Origin: a phage
Strand: one strand, 5' to 3'
Length of the DNA stretch: 64,000 nucleotides
Sequence record: PZ445440.1
Shown here: positions 36,719 through 47,432 of the stretch, piece after piece
Position numbering within the stretch: the first letter of the stretch is position 1
Layout of the letters: every line of letters starts with the position of its first letter
Position numbers and translations under genes: made by a program
Notes under the pieces: model-generated
The model's database searches: none
Told to the model about the DNA's origin: nothing
Seen by the model: the letters and a program-made list of their open reading frames with translations, nothing else

Positions 36719-37033
36719 TTATTCTTTAGGGAAGTTTTTAGAGTATGCATCATAAAGTTTATTACCAATACGGCGGAAGACTTTAGCTGCAAAACGGTTT
36801 TCAGGGTTTTTAATCATGATTTGCATCATGTAAGTTCCTGCATCCGAAAGAGCTTCTTCGTAGTACCCATTAATTTCTTTAAGAGTCCTACGTTTACCGC
36901 CAGGACCATCAACAGTAATTTTCCATTTACCAGTAGAAGTGCGGCTCGGTGGTTCAACTTGTTCAATCCAAATATAACCACCTTCAACGCGTTGGTTGGC
37001 GGATTCTGCAATAAATTCTTTATACGTTTTCAT
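36719..37033 (-). CDS. internal-protein-like capsid-targeted protein (CTS MKTYKEFIAES)
   Basis: CTS N-terminus. Confidence 0.65.
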   Translation of the reverse strand: MKTYKEFIAESANQRVEGGYIWIEQVEPPSRTSTGKWKITVDGPGGKRRTLKEINGYYEEALSDAGTYMMQIMIKNPENRFAAKVFRRIGNKLYDAYSKNFPKE

Positions 37034-37096: not shown

Positions 37097-37357
37097 TTAA
37101 GCTTGACCGCCAGAAATAATTCCGAAGTTGTTAAAATCATGTCCAATATCGTCAACATCTACTTTAGGACTTGCTACAACATAAGCAATTTCACTACGTT
37201 TTGCATAGGTGTTGATTTCTTTACCATCGCCACCTAAAAAAGAATACCCATTACGTTTTAATGAGCCAAAGTCTTCGGCATCACCAACGAAAGCTTTAAC
37301 TTTAAATTTAGGACCTTTGGCAACTGCTTCAGCGATAAATTCTTGATACATTTTCAT
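37097..37357 (-). CDS. internal-protein-like capsid-targeted protein (CTS MKMYQEFIAEA)
   Basis: CTS at internal ATG with SD AAGGGAAAA; track start is upstream extension. Confidence 0.6.
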   Translation of the reverse strand: MKMYQEFIAEAVAKGPKFKVKAFVGDAEDFGSLKRNGYSFLGGDGKEINTYAKRSEIAYVVASPKVDVDDIGHDFNNFGIISGGQA

Positions 37358-37364
37358 TTTTCCC

Positions 37365-37778
37365 TTAGTAAATTGATTTACCATAGTATTTGTACCAAGT
37401 CGGACGTTGAGCAATTTTTTCATCTAAGCGTGCTTGACTTATCGCGATGGATGCTTCGGACGGGACGTAATTATTACGAAATTCTACAGGGATGTCGGAA
37501 ATATCCTGGACTGTCGTGTCCTTGATTTTGAAACCACGTTTCAAACATTCAGCGATTAGCTCGATTTGACGTAAACGTAAAAATTCGAGTTTGTCGTAAA
37601 AGAATGTTACGTGACCTGTGCCTAAGATAAATGTTGGAGAGATTTTAAAATCCTTTACACGTTTACCGTTTTGAACATGTTTACGGACTGCACCAAATAT
37701 GCGTGGTAATTCACGATACTCAGCCATAAGATGTTGGTCGGTCAGTTCAGAAACAAGTGTTAAATTGATACGGGTCAT
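37365..37778 (-). CDS. denV: endonuclease V (pyrimidine dimer DNA glycosylase) DenV
   Basis: [35 protein letters not shown]... matches T4 DenV. Confidence 0.95.
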
Positions 37779-37836: not shown

Positions 37837-38118
37837 CTATTTTTCTGAAGCGCCTGAAATATATTTTTCAAGACGTTGTTTCATCAACGAGCCGTTCTTA
37901 GCGATTTCTTCCGGTTTATCGCACATACGCAACAATGCTTCAAGCTTAGCGATATCGCTGGTACGTTCAAATTTGCGAGTATCTATCTTACTAGCAAGTT
38001 CAGAAATACGTGCTAGTAGACTTTCGGCTTCAACCAAAGCTGCACCTAGCTTAGTTGCAAATGTGTCAGTAGCTTCGTTAAGAATAGATTCTGATAAAAA
38101 TTCACTATATGTTTTCAT
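37837..38118 (-). CDS. internal-protein-like capsid-targeted protein ([14 protein letters not shown])
   Basis: CTS N-terminus; position denV-e as T4 ipII/ipIII. Confidence 0.6.
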
Positions 38119-38603
38119 ATATACGCTTTCCAAGTTCCTGTTTTAAATGTTGAGATTACGCGTTTCGCGCGATTAGGTGTCTGACGATACCATTTAGATT
38201 GGGCTAGATTTACTGCCGCTTCATCCCAACGTTTCTGTTGAAGCATACGAAGAGAATTAGTAAAACCAGCGACGCCTGCTACACCCATTTGGAAGACCAT
38301 ATTGACCAATGCACATCGACGAACCGCATCTAAAGAATCATATACCGGTTTAAGTTTAGCATTACCCAAGATTCCGCGAACGGCTTTATCAACGTCTTCA
38401 TTAAATAGCTTTTCAGCCTCATCAAGGGTAATTGTACCGTTGCATTTACGTCCGATCATTCTGTCAAGTTCAGCTTTAGCTACGGCTAAAGACGGGTTCT
38501 TTGTTACTAAATGGCCTATGCCAATCGTCCAAAAGCCTTCGGTGTCTTTGTATAAAGTCAGTCTAAGACCTTCGTCATTACGAAGCATTTCAAATATATT
38601 CAT
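38115..38603 (-). CDS. e: lysozyme (endolysin) e
   Basis: [35 protein letters not shown]... matches T4 lysozyme; catalytic E11, D20, T26 present. Confidence 0.97.
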
Positions 38604-38606
38604 AAT

Positions 38607-38628
38607 ACCTCCCACGTTTATAGGAGGT
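38607..38628 (-). promoter_or_regulatory. lysozyme leader hairpin (ACCTCC-TATAAACGT-GGGAGGT) sequestering the e SD; late-promoter-like TATAAA in loop
   Basis: read from sequence; same arrangement as described for T4 gene e. Confidence 0.6.
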
Positions 38629-38637
38629 ATTTATTAC

Positions 38638-39096
38638 TTATAGGAGGGTAGTGAGCACCTTATATAATGATTTACCCATTACATATTCCCATTGAGAAGG
38701 TTTAATTAAAGCGAATGCATCAAATTCAGGAATCTGTCGTCCGTCCGGGAATGTATGATAGGAATTACAAACACTGTTTCTGAATTGCTCGTGCTCTACA
38801 GGAATGGTATATTGGAACAGATGAATATTCTTATTGTCTGAGTAATGATGTTCGCCTAGGTCTTTCAGGAAGGCAGGGTCATATTGTGTAAACCCAGTTT
38901 CTTCTTCGCATTCACGAATAGCGGCTTCAATAGGAGATTCGCCGGGTTCGACACGACCTTTAGGAATATCCCACCGATGAGCTAATGCACCTTTAGGACG
39001 AGAACCAGTTACACGCCCCATGAATAATTCTTTATCTTCGGTAAGGAAAATAATACCGGCTGATAGTTCTTTCACTTTATTTTTCTTACTCATCAT
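38638..39096 (-). CDS. nudE: Nudix hydrolase NudE
   Basis: Nudix box GRVEPGESPIEAAIRECEEETGF. Confidence 0.9.
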   Translation of the reverse strand: MMSKKNKVKELSAGIIFLTEDKELFMGRVTGSRPKGALAHRWDIPKGRVEPGESPIEAAIRECEEETGFTQYDPAFLKDLGEHHYSDNKNIHLFQYTIPVEHEQFRNSVCNSYHTFPDGRQIPEFDAFALIKPSQWEYVMGKSLYKVLTTLL

Positions 39097-39337
39097 CTCG
39101 GTCCCATGATTTGGCCATTAATTCGGACATAAATTCTTCAATGCGCGTTTCTTTAGATGGACTTTCACTATTAGAGACCGCAAGTTTGTAATCTGCAATA
39201 GGACAAAACATATCAAGGTCCATATTAAGATCGTCTTTGATTTTTTCTTCTGACACATCTTTATCGTATGTGTACAGATAACTATCACATGATTCTGATT
39301 TAATGTAAATTGCTATACTCATCTCAAATTCCTGCAT
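39086..39337 (-). CDS. hypothetical protein
   Basis: track ORF. Confidence 0.5.
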   Translation of the reverse strand: MQEFEMSIAIYIKSESCDSYLYTYDKDVSEEKIKDDLNMDLDMFCPIADYKLAVSNSESPSKETRIEEFMSELMAKSWDRDDE

Positions 39338-39810
39338 TCGGTAATAAAACGTTCAACTTCATTATTCTTGGCCTTTATCTTGTCTTTACGTTCCTGTAAA
39401 CTACTTTTAACAAGATTAATAATGATGCCTACAGTACCTCCACCAATGATGCCACCAACAACACTTATGATACTAGATGCTAATAAGATAGCAATAATAT
39501 CAACAAAACCGAAAGAACTCACCTTAGTACTAAAAAACCACACTGACGGTACAAATATAATCCATCCTGTTATCCATTGGCACTTATTGAAAAACTTTTC
39601 AAGCTCAGCTTGAGTTGTTCGTATTACTTCATCGATAGGTTGATATCCATTAATGTATCTGTTCACGATAATACCTGCTGGCTGGTTGATTTTAAATTCT
39701 TGGCAAATATGTTTCACTAAGTAGGACGGACATCCTGTCCAATCTACTGAATAATACGAAATACCTTCGTTGCCATCGTCTATATTAGACCAATATGTTT
39801 TGTTAATCAT
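39319..39810 (-). CDS. membrane protein with C-terminal ERFITECR tail
   Basis: track ORF; two TM segments; shared C-terminal motif family. Confidence 0.55.
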   Translation of the reverse strand: MINKTYWSNIDDGNEGISYYSVDWTGCPSYLVKHICQEFKINQPAGIIVNRYINGYQPIDEVIRTTQAELEKFFNKCQWITGWIIFVPSVWFFSTKVSSFGFVDIIAILLASSIISVVGGIIGGGTVGIIINLVKSSLQERKDKIKAKNNEVERFITECRNLR

Positions 39811-40496
39811 TACCAGCCTTCCATAGGGAATTCCAGATAAACTTGGGCATTGACACGAATTTCATTGGTAATCTTTTTAACTCGGTCTGTATTACGAGAT
39901 ACACGTCCGAACCAACGCCATCCGTTACTAATTGCACGAGAACCAGTGTGCCATGTTTGCCAATCAAACTGAAGAAGAGTACGGTCTGGAGCTTCCCATT
40001 TCTCTAGTTCACCTTTTTCGATTTTTTCGAGGACTTCTTTGTGCCACTGGCGATAGATAAGTTCGCCATCAGGAATCTGACTGAACTCTGCAGTTCCTGT
40101 TGCAAAATGAGTAGGACACACATCAGAGTTAACAAGACCAAGAATATGTTCAGAATGGTAACGAGGGTTGTCATAGTCAGGTTGTCCTGCAGTAATAAAG
40201 TGTTGACCAACTGGAATATCCGGGCGTGGTACATCGTCATGGTGATAACCTGGGATAGCAGGGTACCAACCAGGCATCAGCATGTGGACTCGTGAATCAA
40301 ATACAACCTGGTCGGTGTTCCAATCATCCGGCAAGTTCATGATGAAGCTGCGAGTAATAGGACCGCCGTTATTATAAGCAAATTCTAAACTACAGTTAAA
40401 GAACATCGGTTCGTTCTTGATTTTATCATTAGAAATGCTACCGGCAAAACCACCTACTGCACGAGCTTGGCTATTAAACACTTTAGAACTATTCAT
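39810..40496 (-). CDS. hypothetical protein (228 aa)
   Basis: track ORF. Confidence 0.55.
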   Translation of the reverse strand: MNSSKVFNSQARAVGGFAGSISNDKIKNEPMFFNCSLEFAYNNGGPITRSFIMNLPDDWNTDQVVFDSRVHMLMPGWYPAIPGYHHDDVPRPDIPVGQHFITAGQPDYDNPRYHSEHILGLVNSDVCPTHFATGTAEFSQIPDGELIYRQWHKEVLEKIEKGELEKWEAPDRTLLQFDWQTWHTGSRAISNGWRWFGRVSRNTDRVKKITNEIRVNAQVYLEFPMEGW

Positions 40497-40497
40497 A

Positions 40498-40803
40498 TTA
40501 TTTTCCTCGACATTCTTTAATGAAATTTTCTAGATTGGTAGATTCAATAGCTTTTTTACGAGCTTCTGCGTGTTCTTCTTCGGACAATTTACGTTTATAA
40601 TTGACCCAGACATTATGGTCTAAACCGGTCGTGGCATATAATATCAAAGCTCCGACGAATAATAAAAACGGTGATAAAAATATACAACCAGGAACACCAT
40701 CCATACTGTAAGCCTTTTGTAATACTGCAACAGAAAGAGCTGCGTAAAAAAGCGATGCAAATATTGTAAAAAGACCGATTCGGTTGGTTTCGCCTAATTT
40801 CAT
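40498..40803 (-). CDS. membrane protein with C-terminal ENFIKECRGK tail
   Basis: track ORF. Confidence 0.55.
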   Translation of the reverse strand: MKLGETNRIGLFTIFASLFYAALSVAVLQKAYSMDGVPGCIFLSPFLLFVGALILYATTGLDHNVWVNYKRKLSEEEHAEARKKAIESTNLENFIKECRGK

Positions 40804-40823
40804 AATATTCTCCTCATGTTTTA

Positions 40824-40861
40824 ATAGGACTACTATAACATAGCCCTATAATTGTGTAAAC
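40824..40861 (-). promoter_or_regulatory. early promoter GTTTAC/TTATAGT with inverted repeat ATAGGACTA/TAGCCCTAT
   Basis: read from sequence. Confidence 0.5.
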
Positions 40862-40873
40862 AGTTTTGTGAAG

Positions 40874-41830
40874 TTATTTGAAAGGTTTTACCATATGGAA
40901 ATTTTGTTTGAAACGTTTGACGTAATCGTCGTGTCCTAAGCTTTGGTACATACTTACTACTTTGCTGTAGTTTTCCCAGGCATACTCACGGAACCAACCA
41001 GAGGTGATGCTTGTACAGACCTTTTCCAATGCCATCATGAAACTGGCTTCAGGGTTAATTTTAAAGTCATTAGGAATTTGAGAACGTTCTAATGCTAGTA
41101 CACATGATTCTTCGTATACACCGGCCAGTTTAATCATTTCTGGTAACGATTCGAACTTCTCGCGTGAGGTCATGACTTCAGAACCGTCTTTCATGTAAAA
41201 CGTATAAGCCGGACGGTCTGTTAGTGCAATGGCTTCATGAATAGTATCATGGTCATATGTATAGATGTCATCTTTAAAGAACGCACTTTTAGAAGTGTCA
41301 AGAACCGGGTGAGCATAGTTCAAAGTTTCTTTCTGGCGTTTCAGCATAATTTCAGTAAGTTCATCGTTCAGTGTAACACCTTTACCACGAAGATACTGAA
41401 TATGGTTCATAGTCTTTAAAAAGAATGGATTATTTTTCTTGAAACGGTGAGACATCTTAATTGCAAGACATATCTCAGGAGTTGCCCAGTAAAACCCGGT
41501 CAAACGGTCTTTAGTCAAATTTTTCTTGGCGTATTTTAAAAGGTCATAAGAAGACGTGAAATCTTCAGGAGTGAGTTCACCGACTAGTTCACGGACATTA
41601 GTGATTGCCGGAACAATATACGCTTCAAAATGAGTTTCGCGTCCATTATGGAAGCATTTGAAAACTTGGACATCAGGGTTATCTTGGTGGACATATACAC
41701 CCATCATTTGATTTTTGAATGCATTCCAAGAACATTGGTCCGCAATAAAGTCCCAATCACTATTTTTGATAGCGCTAGAATCAATAAGACCGTGATAGTG
41801 AAGTGCACGAGAACCAATAACTAACAACAT
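40874..41830 (-). CDS. hypothetical protein, possible nucleotidyltransferase fold (weak)
   Basis: N-terminal VIGSRALHYHG...SDWDF loosely fits GSx..Dx[DE] pattern; uncertain. Confidence 0.45.
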   Translation of the reverse strand: MLLVIGSRALHYHGLIDSSAIKNSDWDFIADQCSWNAFKNQMMGVYVHQDNPDVQVFKCFHNGRETHFEAYIVPAITNVRELVGELTPEDFTSSYDLLKYAKKNLTKDRLTGFYWATPEICLAIKMSHRFKKNNPFFLKTMNHIQYLRGKGVTLNDELTEIMLKRQKETLNYAHPVLDTSKSAFFKDDIYTYDHDTIHEAIALTDRPAYTFYMKDGSEVMTSREKFESLPEMIKLAGVYEESCVLALERSQIPNDFKINPEASFMMALEKVCTSITSGWFREYAWENYSKVVSMYQSLGHDDYVKRFKQNFHMVKPFK

Positions 41831-41858
41831 AATATTTTCCTCGGATTAATTCATTAAC

Positions 41859-42110
41859 TTAAATTTCACGACATGCGATATCATATTCATCCCAGAGGTC
41901 ATCATGTGAAGCCTCTACCAATGGAACGATTGTACCATTTATGTCTTCATTATAAGGGCAAATTGTACAGTGCGCATCTTCGAATCGGATGCCTTTGTGT
42001 TCAGATTTTTTATAACGCATATCGAATATCTTTGCAAACTTTTCACGAGTAATGGTTTTACCAACCACTTTGGTTCCGATACTTTCGTAATAAATCATTT
42101 TGTTCTCCAT
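41859..42110 (-). CDS. hypothetical protein
   Basis: track ORF. Confidence 0.5.
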   Translation of the reverse strand: MENKMIYYESIGTKVVGKTITREKFAKIFDMRYKKSEHKGIRFEDAHCTICPYNEDINGTIVPLVEASHDDLWDEYDIACREI

Positions 42111-42117
42111 TTGTTTT

Positions 42118-42156
42118 GATAGGACTACTATAACATAGCCCTATCTTGTTGTAAAC
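42118..42156 (-). promoter_or_regulatory. early promoter GTTTAC/TTATAGT with inverted repeat GATAGGACTA/TAGCCCTATC
   Basis: read from sequence. Confidence 0.5.
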
Positions 42157-42160
42157 TGTT

Positions 42161-42358
42161 TTAGCAAGAATAACTAGATGATACCCAGCCTTGAACAGTG
42201 ATACTATTGTGGGATAATGAGATCGCGTCCTGGAGATTCAGACCTGCGTTATCTTCAATCCATAATGTAACTTCTTCGCGTTCTTCTGTTGCAATTTGGA
42301 ACAGGTTTTCTAGAGCAGCTACTGCGGTACGTACAGCACAATCTAATTCACGAGACAT
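42161..42358 (-). CDS. small protein, paralogue family ending GWVSSSYSC
   Basis: track ORF; C-terminal motif shared with next two ORFs. Confidence 0.5.
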   Translation of the reverse strand: MSRELDCAVRTAVAALENLFQIATEEREEVTLWIEDNAGLNLQDAISLSHNSITVQGWVSSSYSC

Positions 42359-42367
42359 ATGGTTTCC

Positions 42368-42640
42368 TTAGCAAGTGTGAGAAGATGCAACCCAACCGCC
42401 ATCTTCAAGGCTCAGGTTGTAGTCGTATTGGTAAACGTCAGCCCATTCAGCATAGCCGTTTTTTGTACAACGTTCAAGATCGGCTTTAAGATGTCCGGGT
42501 GAATGATAGGTTCCACCCATACCATAAGCTGGATACAAGTCGAATGTTGTGTTTTGTTTATCAGCAATTTCTTTGGCAGCCTCAATAGCTGCATAGATTT
42601 TTGCTACAGCTTCGGCCAGTTCGGTTTGTTCTTTAGACAT
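42368..42640 (-). CDS. small protein, paralogue family ending GGWVASSHTC
   Basis: track ORF; YGMGGTYHSPG and C-terminus shared with 42650..42955. Confidence 0.55.
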   Translation of the reverse strand: MSKEQTELAEAVAKIYAAIEAAKEIADKQNTTFDLYPAYGMGGTYHSPGHLKADLERCTKNGYAEWADVYQYDYNLSLEDGGWVASSHTC

Positions 42641-42649
42641 AATGATTCC

Positions 42650-42955
42650 TTAGCACAACGCAGAAGACGAAACCCAAGCACCTTCAGTAATAACGTAACC
42701 ATTACCTTCACGCTTAACATCACCACCATTATTTTCAATTTCATCTTTCATCCACTGGGATACGATTTCACCCTTAGGATAATAAGTACGTCCGCTACCA
42801 TAATCACCTACAGAAAATGATACGGCATATTGGTCTGCGATCTTTGTTGCTTCTTCTTCGATACGTTCAGCTTGATTCAGAAGTTTATAAATTGCATCTG
42901 AAGCGGATTTGGCATCATTAAACTCTGGTACTTTAATTTCAATAATCTTACTCAT
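42650..42955 (-). CDS. small protein, paralogue family ending GAWVSSSALC
   Basis: track ORF; YGSGRTYYPKG. Confidence 0.55.
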   Translation of the reverse strand: MSKIIEIKVPEFNDAKSASDAIYKLLNQAERIEEEATKIADQYAVSFSVGDYGSGRTYYPKGEIVSQWMKDEIENNGGDVKREGNGYVITEGAWVSSSALC

Positions 42956-43311
42956 TTTCTACATTCCTTAATAAAGTTTTCGATTGTTTCATTTTCACGT
43001 TTAGCTAGAAGTTCATTATAACTAATCATTTGAGAAGCGTAAACCTTTTTATTTTTCTTGTTATGGTTTATAAAATCGTAGTAAAAATAGACTACAGTAC
43101 AAAATGATGCGATGGATGCAAAGGCTTGGGTATACCGTAAGTCCTGCCATTGGTCTGTGAATCCACCGGTATTCCCTATAAATCCTAACACAACTCCGTC
43201 AATAAGAAATCCAACTAATCCAAAGGCAAATCCCATGCCAATACTCATAATAAAAATTAAAATATTCTCACCAAGAGAAGGCCATACGGTTAAGAGTTGA
43301 GGCTTTTGCAT
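42952..43311 (-). CDS. membrane protein with C-terminal ENFIKECRK tail
   Basis: track ORF. Confidence 0.55.
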   Translation of the reverse strand: MQKPQLLTVWPSLGENILIFIMSIGMGFAFGLVGFLIDGVVLGFIGNTGGFTDQWQDLRYTQAFASIASFCTVVYFYYDFINHNKKNKKVYASQMISYNELLAKRENETIENFIKECRK

Positions 43312-43664
43312 CTTATTTCCTTAACGAATTCCATAGCTTCTTCATATTCATACTTTTTAACAGCTTCATCATACTGAGCTTGGGCTTTTGCGCACTGAAC
43401 TTTCCACTCGCGAACTCGAGCTCTGTGATGACGGCCTTGGTGCCAATATCCTGCCCAATTAATAGGCATTAATAAAAACGGTACAATAAGTGGTGCGACG
43501 AACATTAATGAAAACGCTGCATCAGACGATATAACTTTATTGGAATCTAAAATAGCTCCTATAATCATAAAGATTAAAAATGCTAAAGCTAAAATAGGGC
43601 CAAATAGTACTTCGTTTGGGATTAATTTACGTTTGTATTCGTATGCCCAGGGCTTAATTGGCAT
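43290..43664 (-). CDS. membrane protein (C-terminus EFVKEIRCKSLNS)
   Basis: track ORF trimmed to internal ATG. Confidence 0.5.
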   Translation of the reverse strand: MPIKPWAYEYKRKLIPNEVLFGPILALAFLIFMIIGAILDSNKVISSDAAFSLMFVAPLIVPFLLMPINWAGYWHQGRHHRARVREWKVQCAKAQAQYDEAVKKYEYEEAMEFVKEIRCKSLNS

Positions 43665-44277
43665 GTACAGGGTTGGCTTTGACATATTCTCTACATTCCA
43701 TAATAAATTGCTCAAGGATTAAATTGTTAGTGAAATTAGGACTAACAACCATAGTTTCATAAAGCGCATCAATAGCACTTAAAGCATCAACTCTTTTAAG
43801 CAAAGGCTTGCCTTCATACATAGTTTCAGAATCGACGATTAACGTAAAGTAATATTTTTTATTATCGACTAGAACTTCTGTGTCGATATAAAACATATTA
43901 GACCTCAGAAGCTTATCTCTAAAACCATAATAATCTTCTGAACGTTCGCTGATATATTCCCATTCAGTGTTTAAACAACAAACAGACCACGTAGGAGCAA
44001 CGAAATCAGTGAATCTAATATCATGGTCTGCAACTAGTTTAGCAATAGCTCCGATATCATGAATCATAATACCTGGGGCTAATAAAGATTTTCTGCTATG
44101 GCTAGCCGTTTTCTCAGTGGTCTCATAAGAAGCCGACCAGTACCATTTACGTCCGGTTGCAACATATCGTAATGAATCAACTAAAGACGTAGGTGGATTT
44201 ACCTTATCTCGGAACTCTTCGAACATTGAGTCAATATCATTATTTTGGTTTCGCATGTTAACTCCTTTATCATCCAA
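43654..44277 (-). CDS. hypothetical protein (207 aa) with EQFIMECREY near C-terminus
   Basis: track ORF. Confidence 0.55.
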   Translation of the reverse strand: MDDKGVNMRNQNNDIDSMFEEFRDKVNPPTSLVDSLRYVATGRKWYWSASYETTEKTASHSRKSLLAPGIMIHDIGAIAKLVADHDIRFTDFVAPTWSVCCLNTEWEYISERSEDYYGFRDKLLRSNMFYIDTEVLVDNKKYYFTLIVDSETMYEGKPLLKRVDALSAIDALYETMVVSPNFTNNLILEQFIMECREYVKANPVHAN

Positions 44278-44305
44278 AAGGAGGACCGGAGTCCTCCGTA
44301 TTATT

Positions 44306-44899
44306 TTATTTCAAAGAGTTAATATATTCTTGTACATCAGCAGAAGTGGTTTCGACACCGGCTGGAGTGCCATTGAACGTTTCAACACGAGTCAGAGTGT
44401 CTTCGATATCAACCTTAGTCAGTGCAGCGATTTCAATTACATCATCGGCCGTAGAGATACCAAGGGCATTGGCTGCTCGAGTTTCACGAATGTATTCGAG
44501 TTTGATTGCCAGGTTCTGACGAGCATCATCAAGTTCAACCACCTTACGAGCAATTTCAATTCGCATAGCGGCATACCCGTCAGCTTTTGTATTAAGTTGT
44601 TCTGCAGTTCGACGATACAGAAGACCAAGCTTAGCATGCATGGTAACATCTTGTCCTTCAGCCAAGAGCTTACGAATTTCACGTTCCTTAGAAGCGGCTT
44701 GCTTATTCTTTTCAATAACAAGTTCGCGAATACGTTTTTCTTCATTAATAGATTTAACAGAAGCCGTTTTTAGTTCTTTGATTTGGGTAATCAACTTATC
44801 TGCAGCTGCGTTATACTGTTCTTCGACAGTCAGATTTTTAGCCATAGCAGTACCCAGTTTAGTGCGGATGAATTCAACAAGTTTCTTCAGTGTGTTCAT
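44306..44899 (-). CDS. hypothetical coiled-coil protein
   Basis: track ORF trimmed to MNTLKKLV. Confidence 0.55.
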
Positions 44900-44969
44900 A
44901 TTATTACCTTTCAATTGGTGGTTTATTATCCAATGAGAGCATTATACTCTGCTCTCAAGAGTTTGTAAA

Positions 44970-45197
44970 TTATTTTTTAATCAAATTGACATAAAACTTG
45001 GCGTCTTCCGGGTGCATGCCTTCACAGTATTCTTCAACCATGAACTTCTTAACAGCTTCATAAGGACCACTCAGATTAAGCTCAGTTGTCCAGAACTTGG
45101 AATCTTGGACTGAATCGATACGAACTTCAGGGTGACGGTTGCGAATAACTTCTTCGGTATATTCATAATCAACGACATCAATACTAACTTTAGCCAT
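44970..45197 (-). CDS. hypothetical protein
   Basis: track ORF. Confidence 0.5.
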   Translation of the reverse strand: MAKVSIDVVDYEYTEEVIRNRHPEVRIDSVQDSKFWTTELNLSGPYEAVKKFMVEEYCEGMHPEDAKFYVNLIKK

Positions 45198-45243
45198 TTT
45201 GTTTTCCTCTTGATTTGATGTGATTACTATAACATAAACTTAC

Positions 45244-45408
45244 TTAGATGTAAATTATTTCAACGTCACCTTTAGCGGCTTTATAACCTTCAGCCCAAGA
45301 TACAACAGAGTTTTTATCTGAGGATTCAAATTCAGGCATTGGACTTTCACCAATATTCACACAGTATGTTTCTTCATTTTCATCGAACCAAATAATTAAA
45401 GTAGTCAT
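45244..45408 (-). CDS. hypothetical small acidic protein (54 aa)
   Basis: hand translation MTTLIIWFDENEETYCVNIGESPMPEFESSDKNLVVSWAEGYKAAKGDVEIIYI. Confidence 0.3.
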   Translation of the reverse strand: MTTLIIWFDENEETYCVNIGESPMPEFESSDKNSVVSWAEGYKAAKGDVEIIYI

Positions 45409-45437
45409 TTTGTTTACTCCTCTGTAGTTAATAAGTC

Positions 45438-45466
45438 TATAGTATCACCATCCTTGGTGCTTGTAC
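45438..45466 (-). promoter_or_regulatory. early-type promoter (TGTACA, TACTAT) with spacer palindrome CACCAAGGATGGTG
   Basis: read from sequence; related to 23770-23799 cassette. Confidence 0.4.
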
Positions 45467-45476
45467 ATCATTATTT

Positions 45477-45782
45477 TTAATTTTTCCAACTTAACAACTT
45501 GTAGTGTCCTTCATTCATACGTGGTTTATCCCAAGAAATACTAATATATGATTCACCACCAATAGAAGTCGCCGGGTTTTTCTCTACCGTAAGACCTTCA
45601 CTTTCCAGCCATTCAATAGTATTTGCGCATAAATCAGAAGAACACCTCATCGGGAACCGGCAAGATTTTTCACCTTTATCTGCAGTGTTATACATCTTTT
45701 CTAAAATGCGCTTTTGCACATTTTTAAAAATAGTTTCAGCAGATTCTTCAGATTTTTTATTCAGTTCAGTATAAAGATTCAT
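45477..45782 (-). CDS. hypothetical protein
   Basis: track ORF. Confidence 0.5.
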   Translation of the reverse strand: MNLYTELNKKSEESAETIFKNVQKRILEKMYNTADKGEKSCRFPMRCSSDLCANTIEWLESEGLTVEKNPATSIGGESYISISWDKPRMNEGHYKLLSWKN

Positions 45783-45839
45783 AATATTCTTCTCATTAAT
45801 AGGGCTCGTAATATCTCAATCATAAGCCCATGTACGCGT

Positions 45840-46115
45840 TTATTTCATATTATCGAAATATTCTTCAGCGATTTCGTCATTATCATGGTAAACTTTAGAA
45901 GACAGTTTAACATAACCTTCTGCCGTGAACATATTAATCACAACCTTTATAGTATACCACTGTCCGTCTTCATTACCCATTACTGCGTAAGTTTCAAACA
46001 TCGGATGCTCAGGTCCAATAACTTTAATATCATTCACCGTACGACTGAAATCTTCTGGAACGCATTTCATAAAGAAGTTGAACAGTTCACCGTAATTATC
46101 CATTTCATTCTCCAA
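45840..46115 (-). CDS. hypothetical acidic protein
   Basis: track ORF. Confidence 0.5.
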   Translation of the reverse strand: MENEMDNYGELFNFFMKCVPEDFSRTVNDIKVIGPEHPMFETYAVMGNEDGQWYTIKVVINMFTAEGYVKLSSKVYHDNDEIAEEYFDNMK

Positions 46116-46281: not shown

Positions 46282-46845
46282 TTATTTACCTAGTTTAGTT
46301 ATTATAGCTTCGGCAGCAGCTTTTAGCTTAGATGCAGTGTTAATACGATTTTTAATTTCAGTATACGCATCGCCAAGAACATCAAGGCTATCAGAATAAA
46401 CACTTACACTATTGCGTTCGCTATTTGAAATAGAACCTTTAGTTTTACGATCAAAATCAGTGTACACGTCTTGAAGATCACGGGCTGCCTTCTTTGCATC
46501 ATCCAATGCATCAAGAGCTTTATTCAAAGCATTGACATATTTTTTAGTGTCAAACATATTCTTAGAAATTTTAACAGGTGCACGTTCAGGAGTAGCTAAG
46601 GCGGATTTAGGAACCTGCGCGCCAGATGCCAGTTTCTTAGAAATTTTGAAAAACGCTTTATTGAAACTATTTTCTTGACTCATCGTAAAAGAACTAGTAT
46701 CGATGTTATACATTTCAATAGCTTTGGCTTTCCACTTAAGAAAATCGCTACGGTCTTTTGGGTCTAAGTGGAAGAATACTTTAGTAAGATCTGCTTCAGA
46801 TGGTAATTTTGCTGCTTCGGTTAAAAATTCGGCGTAGGTTTTCAT
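46282..46845 (-). CDS. internal-protein-like capsid-targeted protein (CTS MKTYAEFLTEA)
   Basis: CTS N-terminus. Confidence 0.6.
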   Translation of the reverse strand: MKTYAEFLTEAAKLPSEADLTKVFFHLDPKDRSDFLKWKAKAIEMYNIDTSSFTMSQENSFNKAFFKISKKLASGAQVPKSALATPERAPVKISKNMFDTKKYVNALNKALDALDDAKKAARDLQDVYTDFDRKTKGSISNSERNSVSVYSDSLDVLGDAYTEIKNRINTASKLKAAAEAIITKLGK

Positions 46846-46967: not shown

Positions 46968-47432
46968 TTATTTGATTTGTTTAGCAGACCAAATGCGGTC
47001 TTTAATAAGTTTTTGGATATCTTCAACATACTCAAGGCTATGAGCGTGAGGATTATCTTTGAAACTATGTGCTCGTGCCAGTTTCTGGCCTTCTGTTTTG
47101 ATTACTAAAAGCTCTTTAAGAATTGCTTCATACTTAGAAATAATTCCTTTGGCGATATTTTTTTCTTGAGCTGTTTTATGGTCCGCTTTTGGCACAGGTG
47201 CTTTACCTGTAGCTTTCTGGAACAATTCACCTGATGCAGCTAGGCTTTTAAAAACTCGGCTAACAGTATTAGCATTAGTAAAACCTTCGGCTTTAAAATC
47301 TCTAATAAAACGGAAACGTTCTTCATCGGAGGCGTCTTTGTAAGAATATTTACCTGCTTGAATTGCTGCAATCGCAGCGGCTTTTACATCTGAACTAGAT
47401 TGTTCAGTCAAAAATTCAGCGTATGATTTCAT
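46968..47432 (-). CDS. internal-protein-like capsid-targeted protein (CTS MKSYAEFLTEQ)
   Basis: CTS N-terminus. Confidence 0.6.
   Translation of the reverse strand: MKSYAEFLTEQSSSDVKAAAIAAIQAGKYSYKDASDEERFRFIRDFKAEGFTNANTVSRVFKSLAASGELFQKATGKAPVPKADHKTAQEKNIAKGIISKYEAILKELLVIKTEGQKLARAHSFKDNPHAHSLEYVEDIQKLIKDRIWSAKQIK

Follow-up and report, generated by a model that had tools for sequence, protein, structure and literature searches.

The e.6 to nudE cluster and its shared C-terminal tail

The DNA analyzed here is a 64,000-nucleotide stretch of a phage genome (sequence record PZ445440.1; the whole stretch is called the window), which contains at positions 39319 to 44277 a cluster in which a first-pass annotation had noted five genes, mostly for membrane proteins, ending in a common peptide related to ENFIKECR. 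Megablast of positions 39000 to 44400 returned a 100% match to Escherichia phage ChristianSchoenbein (Bas46, MZ501056.1; Straboviridae, Tevenvirinae, Mosigvirus), with position 1 of the window corresponding to position 96479 of MZ501056.1. Whole-genome counts given below refer to the full 169,031-bp Bas46 genome, and proteome counts to its 271 non-nested open reading frames (ORFs; 53,974 amino acids). All tail-bearing genes are on the minus strand, between an e.6 homolog and nudE/e (lysozyme), and GenBank labels every gene discussed in the cluster as hypothetical.

All five tails are present. Based on tblastn and the T4 record, g200, g131, g119, and g163 are the orthologs of T4 e.5, e.4, e.3, and e.2, respectively, while g101 has no T4 counterpart; each of the five genes belongs to a different PHROG family, none with a known function, and a Pfam scan of the five proteins returned nothing significant. 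In what follows, C-terminal ends are written up to the last residue before the stop codon. The protein encoded by g200 (43654..44256; phrog_2607) is soluble and ends in ...LEQFIMECREYVKANPVHAN, with the motif L-E-Q-F-I-M-E-C-R at 43690..43716 followed by an 11-residue extension. A two-transmembrane hairpin protein is encoded by g131 (43290..43685; phrog_2604); it ends in ...AMEFVKEIRCKSLNS and has a Cys-less variant of the motif, A-M-E-F-V-K-E-I-R (43311..43337). Membership of g131 rests on F-V-K-E-I-R and not on the "RC" that can be read there, as this next Cys codon contains the g119 start codon and is made by the overlapping e.3 ATG (AAGGAAATAAGATGC). The membrane protein g119 (42952..43311; phrog_2330) ends in ...IENFIKECRK, with I-E-N-F-I-K-E-C-R at 42958..42984, and the two-transmembrane hairpin protein g101 (40498..40803; phrog_9798) ends in ...LENFIKECRGK, with L-E-N-F-I-K-E-C-R at 40507..40533. 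Finally, g163 (39319..39810; phrog_2203) consists of an N-terminal soluble domain, two hydrophobic segments, and the tail ...VERFITECRNLR, with V-E-R-F-I-T-E-C-R at 39331..39357. Overall, transmembrane or strong hydrophobic segments are predicted in four of the five proteins and in no part of g200, in agreement with the initial description.

The tails had been placed correctly at first reading, but two of the start codons were revised. The likely start of g200 is the ATG at 44256, which has AAGGAG 6 nucleotides upstream, rather than the TTG at 44277, which sits in the T-run of a hairpin. For g131, the ATG at 43685 is preferred over 43664; GenBank starts the gene there, in agreement with the annotated N-terminus of T4 e.4, MSKP.... 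With these starts, the C-terminal extension of g200 and the beginning of g131 overlap by 32 nucleotides (43654-43685, minus strand) in different frames. EYVKA... in the e.5 extension and MSKP(T/S)LY at the start of e.4 are each kept between Bas46 and T4, so this overlap is dual-coding.

The tail peptide comprises nine residues with the consensus hydrophobic, E/D/N, x, F, I/V, K, E/x, C, R. When 33 tails from the survey described below were aligned and numbered from the Phe, hydrophobic residues occupied columns -3, 0, +1, and +4 (L/I/V, F, I/V, and C) in 28, 33, 33, and 32 of them, and column +5 was Arg or Lys in all. Column -2 was mostly E, D, or N, column +2 mostly K, and column +3 mostly E. 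The ten residues upstream of the motif are highly charged and nearly devoid of Pro and Gly (12 of 528 residues). This spacing is consistent with one hydrophobic face of about two helical turns; in an AlphaFold2 (AF2) model of g200, which is of low confidence overall (predicted local distance difference test [pLDDT], 62.7), residues 179 to 194 are helical. In the two-transmembrane members, the loop between the segments contains zero to two Lys or Arg residues, and the N- and C-terminal regions are rich in both. By the positive-inside rule, this distribution would place both ends in the cytoplasm (N-in/C-in) together with the tail, the location proposed when the cluster was first annotated. The last transmembrane segment ends 26 to 47 residues before the motif Phe, with a mode near 37 to 38.

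The motif is confined to this cluster and to gene ends. A six-frame search of the Bas46 genome with E.F[IV].ECR yielded four matches, all in the cluster, compared to none in any of 30 shuffled versions of the genome. Matches to the core F[IV]..C[RK] in the 271 ORFs numbered four, every one within the last 20 residues of a cluster gene. Across 32 instances from eight genera, the distance from motif to stop ranged from 0 to 15 residues, with the e.5-like proteins having 5 to 15 codons after the motif.

The tail in other T4-like phages

The survey covered the stretch upstream of nudE or, in genomes where e.6 and nudE are apart, the surroundings of e.6, and the tail set was drawn from eight genera (Mosigvirus, Tequatrovirus, Gaprivervirus, Dhakavirus, a Klebsiella T4-like phage, Kanagawavirus, Karamvirus, and Muldoonvirus). 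The region is hyperplastic, with an e.6-to-nudE gene content that varies in every genus examined. Within it, every Tevenvirinae-type genome examined carries two to six motif-ended genes. In T4, e.5 ends in ...EKFVKECREYVKAITIPSK, e.4 in ...MKFVKESRCKSQS, and e.3 in ...KEFVIDCRKIK. The corresponding tails are FIAECR, FIKEVR, FIKECK, and FIEECR in SP18; FIAECR, FIKECK, and FIEECR in dhabil; FIKYCR, FVKEVR, WIRSCR, and WIKEMK, plus FIAKCR just past nudE, in Klebsiella phage Shark_ER15; FVDQCR, FIKNVR, FIKQCR, and FVKGCR in Enterobacter phage CIP9; FINYCR, FIRMCR, FINDCR, FIMECR, FISRCR, and FIQGIR in Cronobacter phage Pet-CM3-4; and YIDQCR and FIKYCK in Serratia phage Muldoon. The e.2 tail is among those kept in SP18, dhabil, and CIP9 (FIEECR, FVKGCR). 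Beyond these, soluble e.5-like proteins of Aeromonas phage phiAS4 and Citrobacter phage Margaery have the motif as EMFVDYCRR, in a protein ending ...EMFVDYCRRTAPKRD, and as EKFIHSCKK, within ...EKFIHSCKKNVLEKYDP..., respectively. The nudE neighborhoods of a Slopekvirus and of Pectobacterium phage POP12 contained no motif-ended genes. In total, the motif is kept in homologs and positional analogs from at least 10 T4-like genera, and the observation is stronger than first noted.

A scan of IMG/VR for the exact coding pattern of ENFIKECR recovered close Mosigvirus relatives and two unrelated occurrences. One of the latter (L006 6650-6673/L009 830-853) closes a short ORF fragment (...PYQRENFIKECRRSF) on a 299-kb contig; in the other (L013-L015), the motif is internal to a protein of ~110 amino acids (ALENFIKECRGLD...). 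With ~0.7 chance matches estimated, chance can account for both. A profile of the four membrane paralogs searched against 1.84 billion representative proteins gave nine matches, all Mosigvirus-like or T4-like, and the tail module was thus not detected beyond T4-like phages at the sensitivity of HMMER.

The cluster had initially been described as possibly encoding a membrane-protein family whose members share a cytoplasmic tail. The tail is indeed conserved, and predicted to be cytoplasmic, but its carriers do not form one detectable family, and about one-third of them are soluble, including the e.5-like protein. When 34 tail-bearing proteins were compared by BLASTP with their tails removed, they separated into six small groups (e.2, e.3, e.4, two e.5-like groups, and one pair) and 13 singletons. 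Soluble carriers with unrelated bodies include the e.5-like proteins and proteins of 99 amino acids in CIP9, 113 in Pet-CM3-4, and 102 in KpShark. An alignment of e.5-like proteins from nine genera (13 to 46% identity) contains only three invariant columns, M1, C188, and R189, the latter two being the Cys and Arg of the motif. Together, these comparisons show that the tail is conserved better than any other part of its carriers, which are otherwise unrelated or diverged past recognition.

The e.5-like protein is the ancestral-looking member of the set. Alignment of its two groups without tails using hhalign gave a probability of 21% (E = 0.001), with a common stretch of F..WSVC.LN or F..YSVY.LN, which lends weak support to their orthology. 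Homolog searches with a single e.5 sequence and with the nine-genus alignment recovered Mosigvirus-type, T4-type, and Muldoon-type sequences only, leaving too shallow an alignment for the AF2 model. A Foldseek search of the Protein Data Bank (PDB) with this low-confidence model ranked small alarmone synthetases (RelP, SAS1/2) and other nucleotidyltransferases highest, at a TM-score of ~0.18 and a probability below 0.5; a nucleotidyltransferase-like fold for e.5 is therefore a weak lead, not a fold assignment.

Readings of the tail and the place of e.6

Codon usage was tabulated for the 32 tail instances from the eight genera. Phe was encoded by TTT (20) and TTC (9), Cys by TGC (14) and TGT (11), and Arg by CGT (10), AGA (9), CGA (4), AGG (4), and CGC (1), such that both Arg codon families are in use. 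The conserved codons held 1 to 2 bits of information at their first and second positions and 0.4 to 0.8 bits at the third. As the first-pass annotation had seen among the Bas46 copies, third positions differ and conservation is at the protein level. Because synonymous codons are mixed and third positions are low in information, we conclude that selection acts on the peptide, and a functional motif at the peptide level is very probable.

These data bear directly on two explanations that operate on nucleic acid. The tail region might be the translation-initiation or coupling site of the overlapping downstream gene, with the peptide incidental. At most junctions the next start codon lies 0 to 14 nucleotides past the motif Arg codon, the Cys codon after the e.4 motif is created by the e.3 ATG, and AAGGAA from the K-E codons is a plausible Shine-Dalgarno sequence for g119 and g131, suitably placed at the g131/g119 junction and at that of g119 with the next gene. 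To this extent the proposal that motif DNA supplies a ribosome-binding signal stands; it fails at g101 and g163, where the Shine-Dalgarno-like purine run lies 3' of the motif. The run thus shifts relative to the motif, spacing from motif to the next ATG is not fixed (0 to >20 nucleotides), the downstream gene changes from junction to junction, and the e.5-like proteins continue for 5 to 15 codons past the motif. ATGA overlaps and tight packing occur equally at neighboring cluster junctions without the motif, and an Rfam search of positions 38000 to 46000 found nothing. The codon data largely refute this very improbable explanation, and the motif was rejected as a coupling element. Alternatively, tail DNA might provide short homology for cassette shuffling at a common 3' junction, as had also been suggested at the outset. 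The hyperplastic gene content of the region would suit such an exchange, and the T4 e.5/e.4 and e.4/e.3 junctions have 16 identical nucleotides in common. However, paralogous tails within one genome share at most ~10 contiguous identical nucleotides (read by eye), and conservation is at the level of the peptide. The documented shuffling elements of T4-type hyperplastic regions are promoter-early stem-loop (PeSL) cassettes, which are intergenic and ~100 bp long (Arbiol et al. 2010; PMC2839356). PeSLs resemble the tail motif in being short repeated elements that lie at the borders of genes in such regions, but they are conserved as DNA and consist of a promoter, a hairpin, and a Shine-Dalgarno sequence, whereas the tail motif is coding, 27 nucleotides long, variable at third positions, and overlapped by no promoter or hairpin. 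It was rejected as a PeSL cassette, and a recombination junction is the least probable of the explanations weighed. Both nucleotide-level explanations are largely excluded by the codon data together with the short DNA identity between paralogous tails.

Among explanations at the protein level, the tail may be a structural helix inherited from tandem-paralog ancestry and kept for each protein's own folding, stability, or homo-oligomerization, with no common partner. A shared N-terminus (M-[QS]-K-P-x-L) and two-transmembrane layout of e.3 and e.4, the weak match of g101 to the e.2 family profile over transmembrane segments and tail (E = 2.8e-4), and the presence of two to six copies per genome, as expected of a family growing by duplication, are in line with this idea. 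It accounts poorly for the same tail on soluble proteins with unrelated bodies, for bodies past BLAST detection next to nine fixed residues, and for e.5-like proteins whose only invariant residues besides M1, across nine genera, are the motif Cys and Arg. A fixed tail on diverged bodies is more typical of a common external constraint than of each protein's own fold, and we consider an inherited helix unlikely. The peptide might instead be a sorting, turnover, or modification signal read by the host, such as an FtsH or ClpXP degron, a mimic of the FtsZ tail, or a site of Cys modification, as its strictly C-terminal position and near-invariant Cys-Arg pair could suggest. The FtsZ tail, I-P-A-F-L-R-K, has a superficial likeness to the motif in its hydrophobic-x-x-F-L-R-K pattern, but the Pro conserved in it is absent here. 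Moreover, a motif-to-C-terminus distance that varies from 0 to 15 residues is unusual for degrons recognized at the end, the e.4 family lacks the Cys, and neither the IMG/VR scan nor the 1.84 billion-protein profile search found a homologous tail outside T4-like phages. A host-read signal is accordingly improbable. Finally, the tail could be a nascent-chain arrest peptide that stalls near the stop codon and is relieved by insertion of the transmembrane hairpin, tuning downstream translation. The likeness to MifM and SecM lies in the arrangement, in which the gene for a small membrane or secreted protein that ends in a conserved peptide immediately precedes another gene: most tails end 0 to 6 codons before the stop, and the downstream start codon overlaps or abuts it. 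The linker from transmembrane segment to motif, 26 to 47 residues with its mode near 37 to 38, is also in the range where insertion force acts on arrest peptides. Unlike MifM and SecM, the motif has soluble carriers, some with long extensions past it, and its downstream genes are variable and unrelated to one another; arrest is therefore a very improbable function.

We favor a reading of the tail as a docking helix, to which, as the reading overall and for a docking or assembly role as such, we assign a probability of roughly 0.5. According to this reading, the tail would be a short cytoplasmic helix carried by a variable set of hairpin membrane proteins and by the soluble e.5-like protein, and the tails of e.2, e.3, e.4, g101, their analogs, and e.5-like proteins would bind one common partner or bundle with each other. 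A candidate for this partner is the product of e.6, the ortholog of which (44306..44899, minus strand; phrog_1203) encodes a helical-hairpin protein. In all 11 phages examined, e.6 lies directly upstream of an e.5-like gene; in phiAS4 and Margaery, e.6 is elsewhere in the genome, beside nrdD/nrdG, and the e.5-like gene still follows it directly. When a profile of eight e.6 orthologs was searched against PDB sequences, the top four matches were Vipp1 (E = 0.002 to 0.011), colinear over residues 7-145 versus 7-147. In an AF2 model of e.6 (26 sequences; pLDDT, 75.7), a helix at the N-terminus precedes a long hairpin, and the top nine Foldseek matches to this model were Vipp1, archaeal CdvB2, and PspA/Vipp1 entries. 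Pfam PspA_IM30 matched none of the eight orthologs at E ≤ 1, and the similarity of e.6 to PspA/Vipp1 is modest. A sigma-70-type promoter-like site (44941..44969, minus strand; 11/12 matches) lies upstream of e.6, and no comparable site was found before g200, g131, or g119. Between e.6 and g200 is a terminator-like or attenuator-like hairpin with a T-run (44280..44297, minus strand), with an analogous GC hairpin after e.6 in T4. This layout of promoter and hairpin would fit attenuated read-through into the tail genes.

Homologs of PspA are characteristically partnered with small transmembrane proteins (PMC11237479). Because of this and of the conserved gene pair, e.6 is the leading candidate partner of the tails, although a tentative one whose role we regard as doubtful. 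If it is the partner, the membrane proteins could be interchangeable in anchoring or nucleating e.6 at the inner membrane of the infected cell, by analogy with the action of PspB/PspC or LiaI on PspA or LiaH. A speculative and unlikely extension is that T4-like phages carry their own Psp/ESCRT-III-like membrane-maintenance module, in which e.6 forms a PspA/Vipp1-like polymer that is recruited or regulated at the host inner membrane by the soluble e.5-like protein and by an expandable, rapidly evolving set of small hairpin proteins of N-in/C-in topology, all via an L-E-x-F-I-K-x-C-R helix.

Several observations weigh against docking of the tails to a common partner, or against e.6 in that role. 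The terminator-like hairpin separates e.6 from e.5, gene adjacency by itself does not name a binding partner, and a host protein is an equally possible partner. In every genus examined, e.4-family proteins have V, I, or S in place of the Cys, and both e.5-like copies of Serratia phage WSPA have a degenerate motif (IIHQAR, AIHEAR). In T4, e.2 (102 amino acids; L016 7653-7961) is cut short inside the first hydrophobic segment and has lost both the second one and the tail, in contrast to the full-length e.2 of 163 to 195 amino acids in Mosigvirus, Gaprivervirus, Dhakavirus, and Kanagawavirus. The tail is thus dispensable for at least one member in one lineage.

Comparison with known systems places a docking helix among familiar kinds of features. 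The occurrence of e.6 beside several small membrane proteins with predicted cytoplasmic tails recalls the PspA systems of E. coli (PspB/PspC), Bacillus subtilis (LiaH with LiaI/LiaF), and Mycobacterium tuberculosis (PspA with PspM). In contrast to these, the e.6 and tail genes are phage encoded and early, several putative adaptors per genome have one tail that is also found on a soluble protein, and e.6 is below the Pfam PspA_IM30 threshold. The five tail proteins match no PspB, PspC, or LiaI family in Pfam and belong to five separate PHROG families; they were rejected as PspB/PspC/LiaI-LiaF-TM homologs. The FtsZ C-terminal peptide and ESCRT-III MIM motifs are alike in presenting 8 to 10 residues near the C-terminus, after a charged unstructured or helical linker, with few invariant hydrophobic residues and a basic one. 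There is no match in sequence, however, and the Cys-Arg pair is distinctive to the tail motif. A further parallel is the T4 capsid targeting sequence, an N-terminal MKTYQEFIAE that is cleaved by the gp21 protease and sends soluble internal proteins into the prohead. It too is a short terminal peptide on unrelated, fast-evolving, multicopy proteins of the same hyperplastic part of the genome, but the tail is C-terminal and mostly on membrane proteins, and the Glu before Cys that would fit I-x-E is not kept in other genera (FIKYCR, FVDQCR, FINDCR). A gp21 prohead-protease site, (L/I)-x-E, was rejected for the motif, with Glu at +3 in just 17 of 32 tails and Y, Q, D, G, N, S, M, R, or K also found there.

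A literature search, which did not extend to the T4 genome review, yielded no description of the tail motif, of a function for e.2 to e.5, or of e.6 as a PspA homolog. The motif and its possible PspA-like link therefore appear to be undescribed, even though a terminal docking motif is a familiar kind of feature. Ever since the sequencing of T4, genes e.2 to e.6 have carried the label "hypothetical"; through a single peptide, conserved from coliphages to Aeromonas phages, at least four of them now form a unit that can be tested as a whole. Should a PspA/Vipp1-like e.6 be the partner, the cluster would constitute a phage-encoded membrane-stabilizing system with interchangeable membrane adaptors, and would bear on how the inner membrane is kept energized by T4-like phages in infection and lysis inhibition. 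With a host protein as the partner, the tail would be a host-takeover motif. In either case, homology searches with whole proteins miss functional links among phage ORFans that short motifs at protein ends can bring to light.

Neighboring elements

Two PeSL-like elements occur on the minus strand at 40825-40861 and 42120-42156, just upstream of g101 and of an 83-amino-acid gene (41859-42110), respectively. They have a 24-nucleotide identical core, GTTTACA...TAGGGCTATGTTATAGTAGTCCTA, combine a -35 box with a stem-loop and an extended -10 box, and match the PeSL cassettes known from T4-type hyperplastic regions (PMC2839356).

Interleaved with the tail genes is another family whose members have a C-terminal motif of their own. 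Its tandem paralogs at 42650-42955, 42368-42640, and 42161-42358 (minus strand; 101, 90, and 65 amino acids) end in ...GAWVSSSALC, ...GGWVASSHTC, and ...QGWVSSSYSC, the last residue always being Cys; the first belongs to phrog_899. This WVSSSxxC family has three to six copies in SP18, dhabil, CIP9, Pet-CM3-4, and WSPA (FWFNSSMSC, IWYPSSC, and WQSSSYQC, all directly before the stop) and is absent from T4. A 318-amino-acid protein with Pfam domains DUF7277 and DUF7275 (E = 7e-27 and 4e-79) is encoded at 40874-41830 (minus strand). It is found at the same place in the same five phages, is likewise absent from T4, and travels with the WVSSSxxC paralogs and with a 228-amino-acid protein (39810-40496; phrog_1843).

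Outside the cluster, a second set of unrelated proteins in the window has a terminal peptide in common: MK(T/M/S)Y(K/Q/S/A)EF(I/L)(A/S/T)E is present at or near the start of five minus-strand genes. MKTY(K/S/A)EF(I/L).. begins those at 36719-37033, 37837-38118, and 46282-46845, MKSYAEFLTE is found at 46968-47432, and the fifth gene is at 37097-37423. We take these N-termini to be the capsid-targeting signature of T4 internal head proteins.

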